Counted from the stretch's first letter, positions 12,715-44,838 are shown. The stretch is DNA of 45,891 bases from an uncultured Candidatus Saccharibacteria bacterium (GCA_964625905.1 CAZVBS010000001.1:1-45891); one strand, 5' to 3'. The notes: generated by a model not told the origin, from the letters alone. Numbers and translations: made by a program.

Positions 12715-14463
12715 ATGTATATAAACGAAAAACAATTAAAAGAATTTATTCTTGATTCTGGTTTGGTATCTAAAAAAGCTTTCGCAGAAGCCGAAAAAGA
12801 AGCAAAGAAAAAAGAGCAATCTGTCGGCGATATTCTTGTGAGTAATGGGGATTTTACAGAAGATGATTTACGTAGGATACAAGCATATATTCTTGGAATA
12901 CCTTTTGTGAATCTTCAAAATAAACGAGTTGATACTGATGTACTTTCTCTTATTCCTGAACCAATAGCTCGTAATCATAATATAGTTGCGTATAAAAAGA
13001 CCGACGAGAGTCTTGAGGTTGCTATGCTAAATACAGACAACCTAACTGCAATCGATTTTATTAAAAAGAAAGTAAATTTAAAGATACTTCCACGACTTAC
13101 TGACACTGATTCTATTAAGTTTGTACTCAAGCAGTATCAAAAAAGTCTTAAAGATGAGTTTGGTGACATTATTATGCGTGAGTCAGCATCTCTTAAAGGG
13201 TTTTCTGGTGAGGAAGAAAATATGTCTGGTGAGGATCTTAAAAAACTTGCTGAAGACTTACCTGTGGTTCGTATTGTAGATTCACTTCTTCGTCATGCTG
13301 CTAACCAGAATGCTTCTGATATTCATATTGAGCCAATGGATAATCAAGTACTAATTAGGTATCGTATCGACGGTATTTTACATGACACGATGACTCTTCC
13401 TAAAAGGGCAGCGTCACCTATTACTGCTCGAATAAAAGTCCTTTCAAATTTAAAGCTTGATGAAAAAAGACTCCCACAAGATGGTCGCTTTAAAATGGAG
13501 ACTGGAAGTGAGCGTGTATCATTTCGTGTTTCAGTACTTCCAACTTACTATGGAGAAAAGACAGTAATGCGACTGTTACGTGAAGATATTTCAGGATTTA
13601 CTCTTGAAGGTTTAGGTTTTCATGGAGAAGGGCTTGAAAGGATTCACAAAGCAACGCGTAGTAAGACAGGAATGATACTCACAACAGGACCAACAGGTTC
13701 TGGTAAAACCACAACACTATATACAATTTTAGATATTTTAAATACTGCAGATGTAAATATCTCTACAATAGAGGATCCCATTGAATATCAAATGCCAAGG
13801 ATAAATCAAACGCAGGTAAAACCAGATATTGGCTTTACATTTGCGACAGGATTACGAGCTCTGGTACGGCAAGACCCTGATGTAATTATGGTTGGAGAGA
13901 TACGAGATAATGAAACTGCATCTCTAGCTATTAACGCTGCGCTTACTGGTCACTTAGTGCTCTCCACTCTGCATACAAACTCTGCAGCTGGTGCTATGCC
14001 ACGTCTTATTGATATGGATTCAGAACCATTTTTACTCGTTTCAACTATTGAAGTAATTATTGGTCAACGCCTTGTTAGACAACTATGTGACTCAAAGGAA
14101 GAATATACTCTTTCCGATTCAGAAATAAAGAAGCTCGGAAAAGTTGTTGATTTAGATGCTGTGTTAAAGGCGCTTAAGGAAGAAAAAATAGTAGACGGTA
14201 AAGCAACATGGAAGAATATTCCTTTTTATAAAGAGAAACCTTCGACAGAATGTGAAGATGGATTTAGTGGAAGGCTTGGTATACACGAGATTTTATATAT
14301 GTCAGACACAATTAAAAATCTGATAATGAAAGGATCTACTTCAGAAGAAATAGAAGCTCAAGCAAAGAGCGAAGGTATGATGACTATGATAGAAGACGGG
14401 GTCTTTAAGGCAGTGAAAGGTATTACTACTATTGAAGAGGTACTACGCGTTATATCTGAATAA
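12715..14463 (+). CDS. pilB: Type IV pilus assembly ATPase (GspE/PilB family)
   Basis: Walker A GPTGSGKTTT, Asp box, Walker B VIMVGEIRD, His box LVLSTLHTN, N-terminal GSPII_E_N-like region. Confidence 0.95.
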   Translation: MYINEKQLKEFILDSGLVSKKAFAEAEKEAKKKEQSVGDILVSNGDFTEDDLRRIQAYILGIPFVNLQNKRVDTDVLSLIPEPIARNHNIVAYKKTDESLEVAMLNTDNLTAIDFIKKKVNLKILPRLTDTDSIKFVLKQYQKSLKDEFGDIIMRESASLKGFSGEEENMSGEDLKKLAEDLPVVRIVDSLLRHAANQNASDIHIEPMDNQVLIRYRIDGILHDTMTLPKRAASPITARIKVLSNLKLDEKRLPQDGRFKMETGSERVSFRVSVLPTYYGEKTVMRLLREDISGFTLEGLGFHGEGLERIHKATRSKTGMILTTGPTGSGKTTTLYTILDILNTADVNISTIEDPIEYQMPRINQTQVKPDIGFTFATGLRALVRQDPDVIMVGEIRDNETASLAINAALTGHLVLSTLHTNSAAGAMPRLIDMDSEPFLLVSTIEVIIGQRLVRQLCDSKEEYTLSDSEIKKLGKVVDLDAVLKALKEEKIVDGKATWKNIPFYKEKPSTECEDGFSGRLGIHEILYMSDTIKNLIMKGSTSEEIEAQAKSEGMMTMIEDGVFKAVKGITTIEEVLRVISE

Positions 14464-14468
14464 AAAGC

Positions 14469-14592
14469 TAGAACGTACGTCGCCAACACATTTCTTCGTC
14501 GCTACGTCATTAAATATAATTCACAGTATTGAAATACAGCTCATTTTATTTAATTTGTGCTCCTCGAACTATATTTGGCGACGCACGTTCTA
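14469..14592 (+). repeat. E1 nested-hairpin element
   Basis: 18-bp outer stem TAGAACGTACGTCGCCAA/TTGGCGACGCACGTTCTA (1 mismatch), inner 8-bp stem ATTAAATA/TATTTAAT, loop strands ..TTCTTCGTCGCTACGTC.. and ..GCTCCTCGAAC... Starts 5 nt after the pilB stop. Confidence 0.6.
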
Positions 14593-27264: not shown

Positions 27265-28122
27265 ATGAAATTTTTTCGTGCATTCACTGGACCGATTATT
27301 GTCGGTCTTTTTGTTTTTATAAATATCTTTATTTGGTCTACTGTCTTTGCTCGTGAGCAAGGGGGAATGCTTACGGTTGCGTTCCTTGATGTTGGACAAG
27401 GTGATGCGATTTTCATTGAAGCTCCAAATGGCAATCAGATACTTATAGACGGAGGCTCTAACTCCGCTGTAATAAGAGAGCTTGGAAAGGTTATGTCATT
27501 TTTTGATCGTTCTATAGATGTAGTTGTTGCAACTCATCCTGATAAAGACCACATAGCAGGACTTATTGATGTATTTAAGCGCTTTGATATTGATATATAT
27601 TTTGACCCACAAGTTAATCACAACACAGGAGAATATAAAACTTTACTCGACATGGTTGAAAAAGAAGGAATAGCCACAACGATCGCGCGTCGTGGCACGA
27701 AGATTGTGTTGGGTGATGGAGTGTACGCAGAGATATTATTCCCTGACAGAGATGTGAGCAATGTAGAGAGTAACCTTACTTCGATCGTTCTAAGAGTGGT
27801 GTACGGAGAAACAGAAGTGATGCTTACAGGAGACTCACCAAAGAGTATTGAGAAGTATTTGGTATCTATTGATGGAAGTAATCTTGAGAGCGATTTATTA
27901 AAAGCAGGTCACCATGGTTCAAAGACATCAAGTGCGGAGAGTTTTGTTGGTTTTGTAAATCCAAAGTTCGTGATTATTTCAGCGGGTAAAGACAATCGGT
28001 ACGGTCACCCACACAAAGAAGTGATGGATATTTTTAAACGTCTTAGGATTAAAACAATAAGCACAGCTGAGATAGGGACTATTATTTTTACATCAGATGG
28101 AGAAAAAATTATTCTAGAATAG
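27265..28122 (+). CDS. Metallo-beta-lactamase domain protein corresponding to the ComEC C-terminal nuclease domain
   Basis: N-terminal TM, FLDVGQGDAIFIE, ATHPDKDHIAGL, AGHHGSKTSS, RYGHPH: the ComEC-type MBL pattern. Confidence 0.8.
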   Translation: MKFFRAFTGPIIVGLFVFINIFIWSTVFAREQGGMLTVAFLDVGQGDAIFIEAPNGNQILIDGGSNSAVIRELGKVMSFFDRSIDVVVATHPDKDHIAGLIDVFKRFDIDIYFDPQVNHNTGEYKTLLDMVEKEGIATTIARRGTKIVLGDGVYAEILFPDRDVSNVESNLTSIVLRVVYGETEVMLTGDSPKSIEKYLVSIDGSNLESDLLKAGHHGSKTSSAESFVGFVNPKFVIISAGKDNRYGHPHKEVMDIFKRLRIKTISTAEIGTIIFTSDGEKIILE

Positions 28123-28173
28123 GTTTCCTAAAACTTTTTAATTTAGATGAGTTACGAAGTAAACAAAGAAAAA

Positions 28174-28207
28174 ATCCCGAGATGTACTTAGTGGTACATC
28201 TCGGGAT
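28174..28207. terminator. Bidirectional terminator (MBL gene / rpmB)
   Basis: ATCCCGAGATGTAC-TTAGTG-GTACATCTCGGGAT flanked by A5 and T8. Confidence 0.8.
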
Positions 28208-28250
28208 TTTTTTTGAAGTTTAGTAAAGTGAATCGCTAAATTTAGAAGTT

Positions 28251-28493
28251 TTAAATGAGGCCTGCTTTTTTTAGGGTTTTATACGCCCCATTCTTATTGA
28301 TTGTTCGAATTGCTTTTGTTGAAAGAGTTAGAATCATTTTCTTGCCAAGTTCTGGGATGAAGATTGTCTTTTTCTGTAGGTTTGCATAACGTCGTTTCTT
28401 ACCTGTTGGGTTAAATTGGGTAGCACGAGTACGGTTGCTATATCCGCCAGCAACCTTCGAGCTTTTATTCGTGATAGGACATACTTTTGCCAT
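28251..28493 (-). CDS. rpmB: 50S ribosomal protein L28
   Basis: MAKVCPITNKSSKVAGGYSNRTRATQFNP... Start set at the internal Met. Confidence 0.9.
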   Translation of the reverse strand: MAKVCPITNKSSKVAGGYSNRTRATQFNPTGKKRRYANLQKKTIFIPELGKKMILTLSTKAIRTINKNGAYKTLKKAGLI

Positions 28494-29569: not shown

Positions 29570-29607
29570 AAAGCCCATCTCATATGAGATGGGCTTTAGT
29601 TTTTTTG
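29570..29607 (+). terminator. Rho-independent terminator
   Basis: AAAGCCCATCTCAT/ATGAGATGGGCTTT palindrome followed by a T-run. Confidence 0.75.
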
Positions 29608-30245: not shown

Positions 30246-30707
30246 ATGCGAAGACCACTTAAAAAGAAAAGAGAATTACAACCAGATCGTGTATACGATT
30301 CTGTTAATGTGTCTAAATTTATAAACTACGTTATGGAACGTGGTAAGAAAAATACAGCACGAAAGGTTGTATATAATACATTTTTAGAGTTAAAGAAAAG
30401 TGGAGACCCTGTTGAAATATTTGAAACAGCACTGCGTAATGTAGAACCTTCAATGGAGGTACGATCAAGGAGAGTTGGTGGAGCAAATTATCAAGTTCCT
30501 CGAGAAGTGCGAGCAGAAAGACGCCTATCACTTTCAATGCGTTGGATACTTGCAGCAGCTAAAGCTAAAAAAGGTACACCTATGCACAAACGTCTTGCAG
30601 AAGAGCTATTACTTGCGAGTAATAAAGAAGGAGATGCAGTGAAGCGTAGGATGAATACTCATAAGATGGCTGAGGCCAACAAGGCTTTTGCTCACTTTGC
30701 TTGGTAA
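30246..30707 (+). CDS. rpsG: 30S ribosomal protein S7
   Basis: Conserved S7 sequence ([37 protein letters not shown]). Confidence 0.97.
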
Positions 30708-30715
30708 AAAATTCC

Positions 30716-30819
30716 CAGAATTAAAGCACTACTTCGTTACTGCGAAAAAATGTCACTCGTCGTATGTTCATACGCCTCGTGACATTTTTTTCTTGTGCCT
30801 CGCACTGCAGTTAATTCTG
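30716..30819 (+). repeat. E2 nested-hairpin element
   Basis: Outer stem CAGAATTAA/TTAATTCTG, inner 12-bp stem AAAAAATGTCAC/GTGACATTTTTT, apex CGTATG/CATACG, loop strands AGCACTACTTCGTTACTGCG and TCTTGTGCCTCGCACTGCAG. Starts 8 nt after the rpsG stop. Confidence 0.6.
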
Positions 30820-31033
30820 AAAATTTTTATTTTTTCTATACGTCTCGCATTACATCTGAAATCTTTTAAAAATATTCGCAATACTAAAATGTATATCTCA
30901 CGACTTTTTTGTTTCTAGTCTGGTACTCCATTTCAGAATAAGAGTTCTTGGGAAGCTTTCTTTTTGTATAAAAAAGTGATATTAAGAGTGGTAGATAGAG
31001 TGTCCTTATTTCAATATGTAAGGGAGACTGCGT

Positions 31034-31702
31034 ATGAATAGCTTTCAAAAGTTATTGGTGTCGGTAATTGTTGCCGTAATCTTGAGTTCCTGTGCCCAGC
31101 GAGGCAGTGGATCAACATCTGGAGGACCGTCTGCTCTTATTAATGATGAAGTTGTTGTTTATGAAAGTTGTATGGGTGAAATACTTAACGCACGCGATAA
31201 AGAGCTTGAAGTTCCACACACGATAGCTTTCGTCAAAGATCTTGTAGGCGAAATGTTCTCGTGTGAAAATTTTCGCGGAGCTCCAGTTAAGTTTTTCGGA
31301 AAGAAAGTGCGTATTCAAGGTCGTTCAATTCATGCTGGTTACGGATATGCTCTAGCAGATCGAAAACAAGTCATTAGTGAGCTCCTTTCAAAAGAAAATT
31401 TTAAGGGGTATTACTACGATCCGCGTGGACGATTTAAGGTATCGATCAATCGAAGGCTTGATTATGTTCGCGCATATGATCGCACCGTGCCCACGTACAT
31501 AATTGTTGCGAATGTGAAATACATTGGAAAGCGTACAATTGGCGCACTTTCTGTGATTGATTTTTCACAGGAAGGTCGGGATTACACCGCGTTTCTGTGG
31601 ATCCATGGACTTGGGCTTACTCAAGAGAAAATTGTGTCGCGTTTTGAAAAGCTGCTCCGCTTTATTGCATCACCTTCTCAATTTAAGGTGGTACTGAAAT
31701 AA
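31034..31702 (+). CDS. Hypothetical lipoprotein (222 aa) inserted between rpsG and fusA
   Basis: Lipobox VILSSC after a hydrophobic h-region, GGGAG RBS 7 nt upstream, own terminator. No family recognised. Confidence 0.6.
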   Translation: MNSFQKLLVSVIVAVILSSCAQRGSGSTSGGPSALINDEVVVYESCMGEILNARDKELEVPHTIAFVKDLVGEMFSCENFRGAPVKFFGKKVRIQGRSIHAGYGYALADRKQVISELLSKENFKGYYYDPRGRFKVSINRRLDYVRAYDRTVPTYIIVANVKYIGKRTIGALSVIDFSQEGRDYTAFLWIHGLGLTQEKIVSRFEKLLRFIASPSQFKVVLK

Positions 31703-31707
31703 TAGGG

Positions 31708-31733
31708 CTCCTCCGTGTACGTACACGGAGGAG
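31708..31733 (+). terminator. Hairpin terminator of the lipoprotein gene
   Basis: Perfect palindrome CTCCTCCGTGTAC/GTACACGGAGGAG followed by TTTGTT. Confidence 0.65.
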
Positions 31734-31737
31734 TTTG

Positions 31738-34013: not shown

Positions 34014-34111
34014 CATATTAACTCCTCGGCTCTGATATATAAAAGTAAAACTTTTATATATCACTCGCCCTACGTCACTAATAAACGCCAAGAGTACTCT
34101 TGGCGTTTATT
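34014..34111 (+). repeat. E6 structured element (homolog of E5)
   Basis: CATATTAACTCCTCGGCT, 13-bp hairpin GATATATAAAAGT/ACTTTTATATATC, CTCGCCCTACGTCACTAAT, hairpin AAACGCCAAGAGTACTCTTGGCGTTT. Confidence 0.6.
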
Positions 34112-34134
34112 AGTGTGTATTTGTGTCAAAATAC

Positions 34135-34190
34135 TTGACTTACGTATTCGTTTCTTGCTATTATAGCGTAATCGCATTGGGCGCTTTTTT
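34135..34190 (+). promoter_or_regulatory. Promoter of tuf with a weak hairpin/U-tract and a roughly 235-nt leader
   Basis: TTGACT-18-TATTAT, then AGCG..CGCT plus T6. Confidence 0.4.
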
Positions 34191-34401
34191 GTATGTGGGA
34201 TTCTTTTCTCTCGTATATTTAGATGTCTATGCTTAATTATCAATAAGTATTTTTAAGAAGTAAGTCACTTGTTCTCGTGCGTTTACTTTTCAAAGATACA
34301 CCCTTTATTAATCATTTTAGGACTTACTGAGTCGGATGCAGTTCTACGCAGTAGCAAAGAAATGTATCGATTAAGCAAGTTTTAATTAAATTAAAATTAT
34401 T

Positions 34402-35601: not shown

Positions 35602-35677
35602 TATTTGTACGATTGTATAAAGTACTCATATAAAGTAAACGTGTGTGGTACAGTGTACTCACAAGAAAAACAGAACC

Positions 35678-36118
35678 ATGACAACTAAAGACACAAAGAA
35701 AGAATTAATAAAGGAAACTGAAGAAGTATCTTCTTCAGATAAGAAACCTGCAAAGAAAGTAGCGAAAAAGGCTGCGCCTAAAAAGGCAACCAAGAAAGCT
35801 ACTGGAGACGGAATCTCAAGATTACGTATTCGTGTGCGAGCATATGAACACAAACTTCTTGATGTATCTGTAAAGCAGATTATTGACACCGCACTTCGGT
35901 ATGATGCTGAAGTAGTAGGACCAACACCTCTTCCAATTGAAAGAAAGTTATATACTGTTAACCGTTCAAGTTTTGTACACAAAGATGCGCGAGAACAATT
36001 CGAGATGCGTGTACATAAGAGAATGATTGATATAATTAACCCAAATCAGAAAGTTGTTGAGTCCTTGACTAATCTTTCTTTGCCGTCGGGAGTGAACATC
36101 GACGTAAAAATGATGTAA
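35678..36118 (+). CDS. rpsJ: 30S ribosomal protein S10 with a Lys/Ala-rich N-terminal extension of about 45 aa
   Basis: The S10 core RLRIRVRAYEHKLLD...GVNIDVKMM is preceded by KKPAKKVAKKAAPKKATKKA. The ATG at 35678 is preferred over the track GTG at 35645. Confidence 0.93.
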   Translation: MTTKDTKKELIKETEEVSSSDKKPAKKVAKKAAPKKATKKATGDGISRLRIRVRAYEHKLLDVSVKQIIDTALRYDAEVVGPTPLPIERKLYTVNRSSFVHKDAREQFEMRVHKRMIDIINPNQKVVESLTNLSLPSGVNIDVKMM

Positions 36119-36120
36119 TC

Positions 36121-36241
36121 GCATTTCTAAAATTACTTCATCTACTTCGTCGTTAGCTCATAATATTTTCTTTGCCGTACTAATGTACGCCTCTGAAAAT
36201 ATTCTTCGCACTCCTTGTATCTAAAGCAATTTTAAAAATGC
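36121..36241 (+). repeat. E3 nested-hairpin element
   Basis: Outer 14-bp stem GCATTTCTAAAATT/AATTTTAAAAATGC (1 mismatch), inner stem AATATTTTC/GAAAATATT, apex CGTAC/GTACG, strands ..ATCTACTTCGTCGTTAG.. and ..CGCACTCCTTGTA... Starts 2 nt after the rpsJ stop. Confidence 0.6.
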
Positions 36242-36248
36242 TTGAAAC

Positions 36249-36272
36249 AAAAACCGCCTTACGGCGGTTTTT
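36249..36272 (+). terminator. Rho-independent terminator
   Basis: AAAAACCGCC-TTAC-GGCGGTTTTT. Confidence 0.8.
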
Positions 36273-36291
36273 GTAATTTTATGCGAAAAAG

Positions 36292-36475: not shown

Positions 36476-36733
36476 GTGGTTGAAAAATTATCACTTTATG
36501 AAGCTATTATTTTTTCAATGAAAAAGCACAAGCCAAATGAAGATGGAAGTTGCAAAACTGAAAGTTGCGACGGCATGGTCGTTGCCGAGGTTAATGGATT
36601 GTTTAGAGGAAATTATACCCACGGCACTCCTTTCTGTAGTAGATGTAAGAGATCATATATTTCTGCTGTTAATGTGTCTGTTATAGGCATAGAAGAATTT
36701 GAAAGATTAATGCGTACACCCATGACGATTTAA
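36476..36733 (+). CDS. Hypothetical 85-aa zinc-ribbon-like protein inserted between rpsJ and rplC
   Basis: GTG start 5 nt after AGGAGG (36465-36470). Cys pairs C-KTES-C and C-SR-C. Own terminator. Confidence 0.5.
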   Translation: MVEKLSLYEAIIFSMKKHKPNEDGSCKTESCDGMVVAEVNGLFRGNYTHGTPFCSRCKRSYISAVNVSVIGIEEFERLMRTPMTI

Positions 36734-39716: not shown

Positions 39717-39743
39717 AAATTTAGAATTGTTTCACTATAAGTA

Positions 39744-39782
39744 ACAAGAAAGGTCACTACACAGTGACCTTTCTTGTTTTTG
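39744..39782 (+). terminator. Rho-independent terminator after rplB
   Basis: 15-bp stem ACAAGAAAGGTCACT/AGTGACCTTTCTTGT followed by a T-run. Confidence 0.8.
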
Positions 39783-40162: not shown

Positions 40163-40217
40163 TTGACATAAGCCTTCGTTTTAGCTATTATGTACGCCAA
40201 GCTCGAGAGAGCTTTTT
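40163..40217 (+). promoter_or_regulatory. Consensus promoter of the rpsS-rplE unit plus 5'-proximal hairpin and U-tract
   Basis: TTGACA-17-TATTAT, then AAGCTC-GAGA-GAGCTT plus TTT (40199-40217). Confidence 0.55.
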
Positions 40218-43332: not shown

Positions 43333-43872
43333 ATGTCATTAACAAAAGAAAAACAGAATAATATTTTTGACTCTATAAAAGAGAAGTTAAACTACACAAA
43401 TGTATCGCAGTCACCTAAGATTAATAAGGTTACTGTGTCTGTTGGAGTTGGATCAATAAAAGATAAAAAGAAAATAGAAACAATTATTGATAGACTTACA
43501 AAAATAACGGGACAAAAGCCTTCTGCTCGTCCTGCAAAGAAATCTATCGCTACATTTAAGCTTAGAGAAGGAGATATAATTGGATATCAGGTAACACTGC
43601 GTGGTCCACGTATGTATGATTTTCTTGATAAGCTTATTCATGTTGCACTTCCACGAACTCGTGACTTCAGAGGTATCAAACTTTCATCAATCGACGAAAT
43701 GGGTAATATATCTATTGGCATCAAAGAACACACTATATTCCCAGAGACTTCAGGCGAAGAGTTAAGAGATGTGTTTGGAATGAGTGTTACTATTACCACT
43801 TCAGCAGTGACTCGAGAAGAGACTGAAGCTTTGCTTCGCGGCGTACAATTCCCCCTACAAAAAGCAGAGTAG
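43333..43872 (+). CDS. rplE: 50S ribosomal protein L5
   Basis: KSIATFKLREG, LPRTRDFRG, FPE. Confidence 0.96.
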   Translation: MSLTKEKQNNIFDSIKEKLNYTNVSQSPKINKVTVSVGVGSIKDKKKIETIIDRLTKITGQKPSARPAKKSIATFKLREGDIIGYQVTLRGPRMYDFLDKLIHVALPRTRDFRGIKLSSIDEMGNISIGIKEHTIFPETSGEELRDVFGMSVTITTSAVTREETEALLRGVQFPLQKAE

Positions 43873-43873
43873 T

Positions 43874-43994
43874 CAAACACTTAAAAACAATGCGCTACTT
43901 CGTTGTACATCGAAACATTTTAACGCCGTACCTTGAGTACGGCTTTTAAAATGTTTCTTGCACACCTCGTACCACATTTGTTTTTTAGTGTTTG
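43874..43994 (+). repeat. E4 nested-hairpin element
   Basis: Outer 17-bp stem CAAACACTTAAAAACAA/TTGTTTTTTAGTGTTTG (1 mismatch), inner perfect 12-bp stem GAAACATTTTAA/TTAAAATGTTTC, apex GCCGTAC/GTACGGC, strands TGCGCTACTTCGTTGTACATC and TTGCACACCTCGTACCACAT. Starts 1 nt after the rplE stop. Confidence 0.65.
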
Positions 43995-44041: not shown

Positions 44042-44755
44042 ATGAAATATTTTAACGTAACACAGGCGGAAATTGAAAAGAAACTCTTCAATATCTTTAT
44101 TGGTATTAGTCTGGGGAATAAATTGTTAACACCTGAATTAGTAAAGAAATATGTTAAATGGGCTCATAAAAATACTAAAGATAACGCAATTATCCTTATT
44201 GCAAATGACATAGATACTGTTAATTGGGAGATCTTTAATGGGTTAAGTCACGAAGAAGCTTTAAAGAAAGTTGAACAGAAAGGATACGGGATTTCAGGCA
44301 TGTTTGATAAAGCTGTTCGTACACTAGCAAAAGAAGAAAGTGACCCAAGTTATATATCAGATGTGCATATTGTATTTTGGAATGATATCAAAAATGAAGG
44401 GTACGATCATTTAAGAGAAATACTTGATGAAGAATATAAAACAAATAATAAATTTAGAGAAAAGGTGTTGTGTTTTGTAGATAAATACATCGAGTTCAGA
44501 GATGTTGATGTCTCTGAAGAAGATAAAGATAAGCTCGCTGGTTATATTATAAGCGAATTACCAACTCTCTTAGGTGGAGTTTTATGGAATAACACTTTAT
44601 ATAATCTTATTCTTTATCCAACATATGTAGATAGTGGAATGAGTCAATTCGTTTTAGATATACGAGGAGGTAAATATTTCGATTCTTCAAAACTTCTCTT
44701 GAGACAGCTCAATACTCTTGTGGAAGATTATCTGGAAAAGCCCAAGTTATCCTGA
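44042..44755 (+). CDS. Putative tRNA-dependent cyclodipeptide synthase (CDPS, XYP-type)
   Basis: 237 aa. FIGIS23LGN26 (compare AlbC LIGIS37AGN40), Y168IISE172LP (compare Y178VLAE182AP) and LY192P193 (Y202/P203) occur in the right order and spacing. Confidence 0.65.
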   Translation: MKYFNVTQAEIEKKLFNIFIGISLGNKLLTPELVKKYVKWAHKNTKDNAIILIANDIDTVNWEIFNGLSHEEALKKVEQKGYGISGMFDKAVRTLAKEESDPSYISDVHIVFWNDIKNEGYDHLREILDEEYKTNNKFREKVLCFVDKYIEFRDVDVSEEDKDKLAGYIISELPTLLGGVLWNNTLYNLILYPTYVDSGMSQFVLDIRGGKYFDSSKLLLRQLNTLVEDYLEKPKLS

Positions 44756-44790: not shown

Positions 44791-44838
44791 CAAGCCATTT
44801 TAAATGCCCCAGGTGGTTGGGGCATTTAAAATGGCTTG
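44791..44838 (+). terminator. Long hairpin terminator after the CDPS gene
   Basis: 21-bp perfect stem CAAGCCATTTTAAATGCCCCA/TGGGGCATTTAAAATGGCTTG followed by TTTTG. Confidence 0.75.

Follow-up and report, generated by a model that had tools for sequence, protein, structure and literature searches.

ERIC/IRU, Correia (NEMIS), and RUP are MITE-like intergenic repeats of bacteria (PMC2229807). The effect of ERIC on mRNA is orientation-dependent, and no cognate transposase is known for Correia (PMC2229807). The elements that we describe here have much in common with these repeats: a size in the 100-160 bp class, the absence of coding capacity, ends that pair into one long stem-loop, 5'-TA-3' termini, and many genomic copies that lie beside coding regions and are co-transcribed with them (PMC2229807). 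However, ERIC, Correia, and RUP are conserved in sequence over their full length and have clear TIRs and TA duplications, whereas in the present elements the stems are free in sequence and covary, conservation (across phyla) is confined to the apex and the strands of the internal loops, and the selected fold is mostly antisense to the adjoining gene.

A REP is an imperfect palindrome of 20-40 nt with a GTAG or CGTC tag at one end (PMC3733652), and in a REPIN two inverted REPs form a symmetric doublet, the ends of which are highly conserved and the spacer variable (PMC3116915). As in REP, BIME, and REPIN elements, the copies described here are extragenic and numerous, sit for the most part no more than 20 bp from 3' ends in the gaps between codirectional or convergent genes, can form hairpins as either RNA or ssDNA, with G·T pairs and with stem changes that compensate each other, and are vertically persistent yet duplicative (PMC3116915, PMC3733652). 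They differ in size (∼122 nt) and in the tag, since GTAG is found only within AACGAAGTAG, which is not terminal; the GUA of this string pairs with UAC and covaries with GCA/UGC, GAA/UUC, and GUC/GAC as a 3-bp helix. The symmetry of a REPIN is also missing, as the conserved strands (C-GA-GG and AAC-RAA-G, plus the apex) are asymmetric and it is the outer stem that varies.

Integron attC sites have a structure-conserved, strand-specific fold with unpaired features, lie behind a stop codon, and fold on the strand antisense to the ORF; the attC repeats of Vibrio cholerae are 123-126 bp long. The present elements share with them the similar length, the conservation of structure over sequence, the abutment on a stop codon, and the antisense fold, but have no R and L boxes, arrays, or integron integrase, are scattered over genomes behind housekeeping genes, and have strongly conserved loops. 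An intrinsic terminator is a short GC-rich hairpin followed directly by a U tract, a description that fits only the inner hairpin of one divergent copy (E5, below), and copies in high-GC hosts are without a U tract. TIGR loci are tandem arrays of two-spacer units with box C/D flanks beside a tas gene (PMC12045711); our copies are dispersed, no Nop-domain match was found, and the ORF adjacent to E2 is lipoprotein-like. Structured noncoding RNAs of the kind held in Rfam also have covarying helices, conserved purine-rich internal loops, and G·U pairs, but here the copy number is very high and no known promoter transcribes the folding strand in most copies. Taken together, three differences separate the elements from REP, REPIN, attC, terminators, TIGR, and MITEs: the loops are conserved while the stems are free, selection acts on one strand, and that strand is mostly antisense.

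Elements in the window and the family to which they belong

The window is the whole stretch of DNA that was analyzed (45,891 nt, 36% GC), and element coordinates are counted from its first letter. It belongs to a Patescibacteria genome of Parcubacteria/Paceibacteria-like type. Its L5 shares 93% identity with the L5 of MAG contig CAZNRH010000003 (L001) and 57-68% with those of many Parcubacteria MAGs; exact matches to this protein were confined to contigs of 1-2 kb. The genes present include HU, RNase Y, ClpP, trigger factor, NusA, a type IV pilus cluster, TIM, PGK, RecJ, RNase H, ComEC, SOD, and L28, and the str/S10/spc ribosomal protein cluster comes after them. The window yielded no transposase, integrase, or reverse transcriptase. 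A sequence-only reading had reported nested-hairpin elements E1-E4 at 14469-14592, 30716-30819, 36121-36241, and 43874-43994, starting 5, 8, 2, and 1 nt after a stop codon. We confirmed these positions and gaps, and the loop strings that it quoted are present in the copies. All four copies are real, but the count of four overlooked a diverged fifth copy and a truncated one. The features are listed below with scores from two covariance models, R1, built from the minus strands of E1-E4, and R2, built from 23 copies.

14470-14591, minus strand: E1, full copy (R1 123.3 bits), 6 nt past the TAA of pilB (12715-14463, plus strand), with pilC downstream
28130-28252, plus strand: E5, diverged fifth copy (R1 61.3 bits, E 1.7e-11; R2 90.3 bits)
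30708-30827, minus strand: E2, full copy (R1 108.5 bits, R2 108.5 bits), behind rpsG (30246-30707, plus strand)
34319-34383, plus strand: truncated copy (R2 31.6 bits, E 5.7e-4; P1/P2 columns only)
36120-36242, minus strand: E3, full copy (R1 113.2 bits), 1 nt past the TAA of rpsJ (35645-36118, plus strand)
36247-36274, plus strand: intrinsic terminator (A-tract, GC stem, T-tract) from a terminator scan, just past E3
43874-43994, minus strand: E4, full copy (R1 108.6 bits), its 3' end 1 nt from the TAG of rplE (43333-43872, plus strand)

In the window, R1 scores E1-E4 at 108-123 bits and E5 at 61 bits, and the remaining matches, at 27 bits or less, are plain hairpins. The genes beside E1 are T2SSE and T2SSF by Pfam. 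The outer stem of E2 (AAAATTTTC.../...GGAATTTT, near the common terminus of the family) reaches the base that adjoins the TAA stop of rpsG, which gives the covariance-model span of 30708-30827. Because the terminator at 36247-36274 lies beyond E3, this element is within the rpsJ transcript. E5 scores 90.3 bits (R2) on the plus strand vs 28.9 bits on the other strand; at its 3' end it shares 2 nt with the stop of the convergent, minus-strand L28 gene (28251-28547; gap -2), and its 5' end is 7 nt past the stop (28122) of a plus-strand MBL-fold gene (27265-28122). The inner hairpin of E5 (28169-28212; A tract, GC stem, T tract) scores as a bidirectional intrinsic terminator and would serve the convergent MBL-fold and L28 genes. 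The truncated copy retains the outer stem P1 and the 3-bp P2, with the inner helices deleted, and is sense-oriented in the 5' leader of tuf, 18 nt ahead of the ATG; a promoter-like site for tuf is at 34135-34164.

E1-E4, E5, and the truncated copy are members of a high-copy, non-coding, dispersed repeat family of ∼122 nt. Applied to 80 loci that surround rplE in other Parcubacteria MAGs, R1 detects 19 additional copies in 11 of them; as this model derives from the window alone and matches independent genomes at E values of 1e-8 to 1e-17, the matches are not due to chance. With R2, 28 copies are found in 12 of 81 Patescibacteria loci, so that the covariance model proposed in the sequence-only reading does recover further copies. 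The presence of the family is patchy (not detected in 69 of the 81 related loci), and the density within carrier loci is ∼1 copy per 5-9 kb. Metagenomes were scanned with an exact pattern that covers part of the consensus, and the first 80 matching loci were listed; R2 confirms 70 of these 80, with at least 83 model-strand matches (top 107 bits). Since the scan pattern fixes part of the consensus, conservation at those positions in the metagenome set is partly by construction; the 5' core, which is outside the pattern, is nonetheless conserved. The carrier contigs among the matches listed span 35-74% GC. ThiD encoded on one of them (68% GC) is 81-82% identical to proteins that NCBI names as Candidatus Rokubacteria / Methylomirabilota, which places the family in at least two distant phyla. 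In viral contigs, 10 pattern matches were obtained and 0 were confirmed by the covariance model. As an aside, one 67% GC carrier contig (L158, 1-2079) has two adjacent ORFs whose N-termini give the impression, and only that, of topoisomerase VI subunits B and A.

The earlier reading had also called for a comparison with Rfam. A search of the window elements and 20 carrier loci against Rfam 15, with its ribozymes and group II domains, yielded zero family matches at the gathering score, and permissive settings (E up to 5-10) returned generic hairpin matches only, far under threshold. We found no account of this repeat family in the literature. Our best reading is that it represents a new ERIC/Correia/REP-like dispersed structured repeat, one that would act as a single strand.

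Anatomy, covariation, and the folding strand

On the folding strand, the element begins with an outer stem, P1, of 17-20 bp, which is free in sequence and frequently ends in YTA...TAR. P1 is often AAAACUUUC.../...GAAAGUUUU in AT-rich hosts, where it finishes in GUUUU, and GGCUGCUCA.../...UCAGCAGCC in GC-rich hosts. Inside it are a short UGCA/UGCG helix with a semi-conserved U·G pair; the covarying 3-bp P2 (NNC/GNN); a GA/RAA internal loop (5'-C GA GG / 5'-AAC RAA G); P3, of 3-5 bp; in many copies, a second loop of the GA/GAA type; P4, of 10-13 bp and again free in sequence; a tandem GA loop (GAG / YGA); and an apex stem, NCGUAY/RUACGN, capped by a loop that is free in both sequence and length. 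What is conserved across phyla, in hosts of 28-74% GC, is the set of three purine-rich GA internal loops together with the apex stem. A subfamily represented by two copies from one genome (L030, 15683-15807 and 5976-6100) has a continuous helix (GUUGUGCC.../...GGUGCAAA) instead of the core GA/RAA loop.

The sequence-only reading had described stems that differ completely between copies. This holds inside the window; across genomes, the outermost stem is frequently AAAACTTTC...GAAAGTTTT-like with YTA...TAR termini, TA being present at 48/76 and 37/76 ends vs 16-22/76 in control triplets. Many AT-rich copies end in AAAACTTTC...GAAAGTTTT and the high-GC subfamilies in GGCTGCTCA...TCAGCAGCC, while E1, E3, and E4 have neither.

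Pairing is nonetheless well maintained, and the earlier proposal of a selected structure with free stems and conserved loop strands is borne out by the larger alignments. Within E1-E4 alone, 26 of 41 consensus pairs stay paired through two-sided changes. In the training set, 94.3% of the cells are standard pairs, double-sided changes are present in 40/40 pairs, and the covariation score is 0.82 (0.22 when shuffled and at most 0.15 with the partners slid). The independent metagenome set (listed matches) gives corresponding values of 90.5%, 36/40, and 0.76, against 0.19 for shuffled and at most 0.165 for slid partners. Several known motifs were compared with this architecture and set aside. The apex (GAGCCGUAU...AUACGG) has some likeness to group II domain V, but its 3' side is YGA rather than UUC, so we treat the likeness as a coincidence; no model of this domain or of known ribozymes matches. 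Reading the core loop as a K-turn places the register in conflict with the covarying C-G and P2 pairs. GNRA or UNCG tetraloops cap 0 of 34 apices, where chance would give ∼1.

The stems also indicate which strand is kept paired, as a stem transition that leaves G·T on one strand leaves A·C on the other. Among non-Watson-Crick cells of the model strand, G·T exceeds A·C by 65 to 7 in the genome set and by 188 to 51 in the metagenome set (listed matches). Copies that lie antisense to a gene show the strongest bias (94:22 and 61:6); in the few that are sense-placed it is weaker but keeps its sign (16:11 and 4:1). Folding energies agree with this: each of E1-E4 folds far better than its shuffled versions (z -5.4 to -11.6; 0/200 shuffles as good). 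It was the plus (mRNA) strand that the sequence-only reading described, but the four minus strands fold at -57.6 (E4, z -11.6), -49.5, -36.5, and -43.4 kcal/mol vs -42.7 (E4), -34.8, -31.0, and -23.6 kcal/mol for the plus strands, an advantage of 5.5-20 kcal/mol in every case. G·U pairs in E1-E4 number 11 on minus vs 2 on plus, and the conserved loops are purine-rich on the folding strand and pyrimidine-rich on its complement. The pattern shows selection for the foldability of the strand that, in most copies, is opposite to the gene.

Two proposals of the sequence-only reading are not supported once this asymmetry is considered. In cruciform DNA, each transition yields one G·T and one A·C hairpin and hence no excess of either, and a structure at the 3' end of the mRNA, whether a stabilizer or a processing site, is at odds with an opposite strand that is kept foldable. 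A mutational origin of the G·T excess was also considered and rejected: the coding-strand C-to-T mutation bias is known, but it predicts the opposite sign, and the sense-placed copies still have G·T equal to or above A·C.

Comparison with L001, which is syntenic with the window from fusA to rpsH, extra genes beside E3 and E4 included, reveals how resident copies change. Between E3 and its L001 ortholog, 12 of 39 pairs differ (27 same, 9 changed on two sides, 3 on one side, 0 broken), and the rpsJ coding DNA that flanks E3 is ∼90% identical. E4 and its ortholog have identical loop strands, and 15 of 39 pairs have changed on both sides with pairing intact. These are thus resident copies whose stems evolve fast yet stay paired. 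Duplication is evident as well. Tandem copies occur in L166 (633-755 and 766-888) and L006 (15952 and 16108), and the two L030 copies, at separate loci, have a near-identical inner module (34/40 pairs, 39/42 unpaired positions) and different P1 stems. High-GC subfamilies are near-identical from contig to contig, and copies inside one genome are highly diverged. The family is shown to duplicate within genomes while resident copies keep pairing through compensatory change.

These observations bear on the earlier argument that the elements are not a MITE. The argument is weakened by the within-genome duplication in L030, the tandems in L166 and L006, the termini shared within subfamilies, and the patchy presence (12/81), all of which are repeat-like behavior. 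No target-site duplication was obvious by eye in the flanks of 23 copies, where a TA duplication at the termini is indistinguishable from two extra stem pairs, and no longer element or flanked ORF of the kind expected from an autonomous IS with the same ends was found in ∼1.9 Mb of loci.

Position and orientation relative to genes

About 70% of the classifiable copies (62/85) have their 3' end -17 to +6 nt from the stop codon of a convergent gene. For 22 of the 28 copies from the genome loci, the 3' end is about -12 to +6 nt from the stop of an opposite-strand gene (21 assigned by ORF and one, L013:10531, by its location after rplE), in a sample that is biased because all loci are centered on rplE. 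The genes concerned are rpsJ (five genomes), rplE, rplN, and secY (three each), tuf (two), rpsG, pilB, rplT, and rpmB. The metagenome sample was drawn by the element's own motif, unlike the rplE-centered genome sample. Its 78 copies, among the matches listed, divide into 41 antisense, 9 sense, and 28 unclear, the last often at contig ends, where antisense means a distance of -17 to +6 nt from the stop of an opposite-strand ORF of at least 100 codons and simple ORF calls are taken as genes. The antisense share of copies with an assignable orientation is therefore 41/50. The neighbors in this set are unrelated to one another (tuf, gyrB in three cases, pilC in two, rpsG, rplB, secY, nusG, lepA, and many more) and include ATP synthase subunit c-like and UDG-like genes named from their C-terminal sequences alone. 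Clustering of the 744 neighboring ORFs gave housekeeping families only, none of which recurs within 4 kb of the 78 copies, and no RAYT / Y1 (HUH) transposase was found in the window.

The spacing is tight at the 3' end, toward the gene, and loose on the 5' side (0-170 nt); the stop codon is frequently within the base of P1. Past the element, in the direction of the gene, a canonical intrinsic terminator lies within 90 nt in 21 of the 64 copies placed antisense. Wherever a terminator is detectable, the element is between it and the stop codon, and the element is thus part of the gene's transcript, as the complement of the folding strand. The sense minority is found either 5-16 nt past the stop of a codirectional gene or upstream of a start codon or tRNA, at a distance of 3-24 nt.

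Orientation tracks the adjacent gene even where that gene has the local minority orientation. We rejected a replication-linked orientation, as the local majority gene strand is not predictive, although this is a weak proxy in loci of at most 15 kb. The 5' flanks of AT-rich and GC-rich copies contain no conserved motif that could serve as a folding-strand promoter, and no minus-strand promoter is predicted ahead of E2, E3, or E4.

Stop-codon usage in the carrier contigs L091-L170 gave a separate observation. TGA is nearly missing from long ORFs of the low-GC contigs (3/71), and in contigs above 46% GC it is rarer at the genes that abut an element (4/22) than in the background (68/129). The TAA preference of highly expressed genes could account for this shortage.

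What the elements may do

The explanation that we favor is that the element is a non-autonomous repeat with genomic habits like those of ERIC, Correia, and REP/REPIN of proteobacteria. A factor encoded elsewhere would use the GA loops to recognize the single-stranded fold of the element, either ssDNA or a transcript of the folding strand. The copies that persist would be those in the least harmful place, right behind a stop codon, and the favored orientation would be the one in which the mRNA receives only the weaker-folding, pyrimidine-looped complement, which could still serve as a 3' hairpin in the mRNA. We advance this account of an external factor and of retention in the least harmful place and orientation tentatively, as one that falls a little short of being probable. 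The covarying family structure, the strand-specific wobble, the placement and orientation at stop codons, the unrelated neighbors, the patchiness, the tandems, the duplication, the TA termini, and the density of ∼1 per 5-9 kb all speak for this account. Against it, there is no mobility gene in the window and no recurrent neighbor, and it is the unpaired loops that are conserved rather than the ends. The purely compensatory, in-place change of E3 (9 double, 3 single, 0 broken) argues for a host-level function over a passive selfish repeat, and an orientation set by the adjacent gene, not the local majority strand, is not predicted by a replication-linked ssDNA mechanism. For the folding strand as RNA we found no route, with no conserved promoter upstream and with terminators upstream on that strand; some copies are 0-30 nt from the next start codon.

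In one alternative, the element would be an antisense, cis-acting RNA that insulates the gene end. Polymerases that start at spurious or divergent promoters, or that run in from a convergent neighbor, would produce backward transcripts that fold, and a factor or RNase that reads the GA loops would stop or cleave them at the gene end. The architecture is RNA-like (G·U tolerated and A·C not, GA loops rich in purines, one semi-conserved U·G), the element adjoins the convergent stop closely with its 3' end and is loosely placed on its 5' side, and evolution in place is compensatory. In AT-rich hosts P1 ends in GUUUU, the E5 inner hairpin is terminator-like, and the sense copies in 5' leaders (34319-34383, L007:2262, L056, L116) have a folding strand that is surely transcribed. 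However, 21 of the 64 copies are shielded from an incoming antisense polymerase by an intrinsic terminator that is often bidirectional, several are 0-30 nt from the next start codon with no promoter, U tracts are absent from high-GC copies, close relatives differ in whether the element is present, and stable tetraloops are missing (0/34 GNRA/UNCG, although chance would give only ∼1). We regard both this insulator and the proposed sources of its transcripts as unlikely. A 3'-UTR role in the mRNA, which the sequence-only reading listed among possible ones (a stabilizer or processing site) and which could take the form of a barrier to 3'-exonucleases, an RNase III/E/Y site, or a switch opened by the ribosome, strikes us as somewhat less likely still. 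The element is between stop codon and terminator and so is certainly in the mRNA, the sense RNA folds at -23 to -43 kcal/mol, ERIC and REP offer precedents (PMC2229807, PMC3733652), and, with the stop codon often inside P1, a terminating ribosome must open this stem. Yet the mRNA strand tolerates A·C and loses G·U (155:28, antisense-placed copies), the reverse of what such a role predicts; in the mRNA the conserved loops would read as pyrimidine-rich strands, for which no fold is known; and the 3:1 orientation bias is left unexplained, as a hairpin would result from either orientation.

A recombination site that resembles attC, whose bottom strand would fold for a structure-specific recombinase and mark insertions of accessory genes, seems highly improbable to us. 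Its geometry does match that of integron attC, and three of the window copies precede non-canonical genes in the ribosomal cluster (the lipoprotein ORF after E2, a small ORF after E3, and a CDPS gene after E4). Each of these accessory ORFs is flanked by an element on just one side, though, and most copies are between canonical genes with no inserted ORF (L007, L006, L004). The RYYYAAC...GTTRRRY core sites are not present: AAC...GTT occurs near the ends of some copies (E1, E4) and is absent from E3, L052, L023, and L073. Nor are there cassette arrays beside intI/attI or an integrase, the copies being single or paired behind housekeeping genes.

A further reading takes the element not as a passive repeat but as a new gene-end device on the antisense strand, working as antisense RNA or template-strand ssDNA, with three GA loops bound by a conserved factor and common to Patescibacteria and Methylomirabilota. 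From the comparisons made here we judge such a device possible but doubtful. If real, it might shield the 3' ends of genes against transcription that runs into them, or label these ends for a DNA transaction specific to one strand. In-place compensatory evolution and gene-relative orientation keep a host function of the antisense strand open as a broader prospect, one that we place between doubtful and unlikely. The same loops at 28% and 74% GC, in two distant phyla, imply a common binding partner. Should the density of one copy per 5-9 kb hold genome-wide, the elements would occupy more than 1% of a streamlined genome of ∼1 Mb, a large investment for organisms that discard genes. That an element lies inside the transcript of a gene, yet has its other strand kept foldable, poses a testable puzzle over which nucleic acid is active. 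The covariance model is ready for use in annotating the elements and in seeking a protein that co-varies with them. The elements also break up ribosomal protein operons and may confound predictions of operons, terminators, and sRNAs.

The ribosomal protein region of the window has features of its own. The S10/spc operon is normally continuous, and here it is interrupted by strong hairpin-plus-T terminators at 29570-29597, 31705-31736, 34076-34115, 36247-36274, 39743-39778, and 44791-44838, one of which has a perfect 20-bp stem; promoter-like sites occur in the same region, for example at 34135-34164 and 40163-40191. A tRNA-dependent cyclodipeptide synthase-like gene (44042-44755, plus strand) lies between rplE and rpsN, within the ribosomal protein cluster (Pfam CDPS 39.6 bits; NCBIfam TIGR04539 54.2 bits, above the cutoff of 45), and is present at the same place in L001 with 85% identity. 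Directly downstream of E2 is an ORF for a lipoprotein-like protein of 222 aa with a signal peptide and a Cys lipobox (31034-31702, plus strand), and directly downstream of E3 is one of 85 aa (36476-36733, plus strand) that is 37% identical in L001; both are non-canonical within the str/S10 cluster and neither has a family match. At ∼12.5 kb, in the interval from minus-strand nusA to plus-strand pilB, negative GC skew and minus-strand genes give way to positive skew and plus-strand genes, a switch that could reflect a replication origin or strand composition alone. Finally, the rpsJ ORF (35645-36118, plus strand) encodes 157 aa, with the S10 domain starting only at residue 61; the preceding segment is 85% identical with that of L001 and may be a genuine N-terminal extension or the product of an over-called GTG start.
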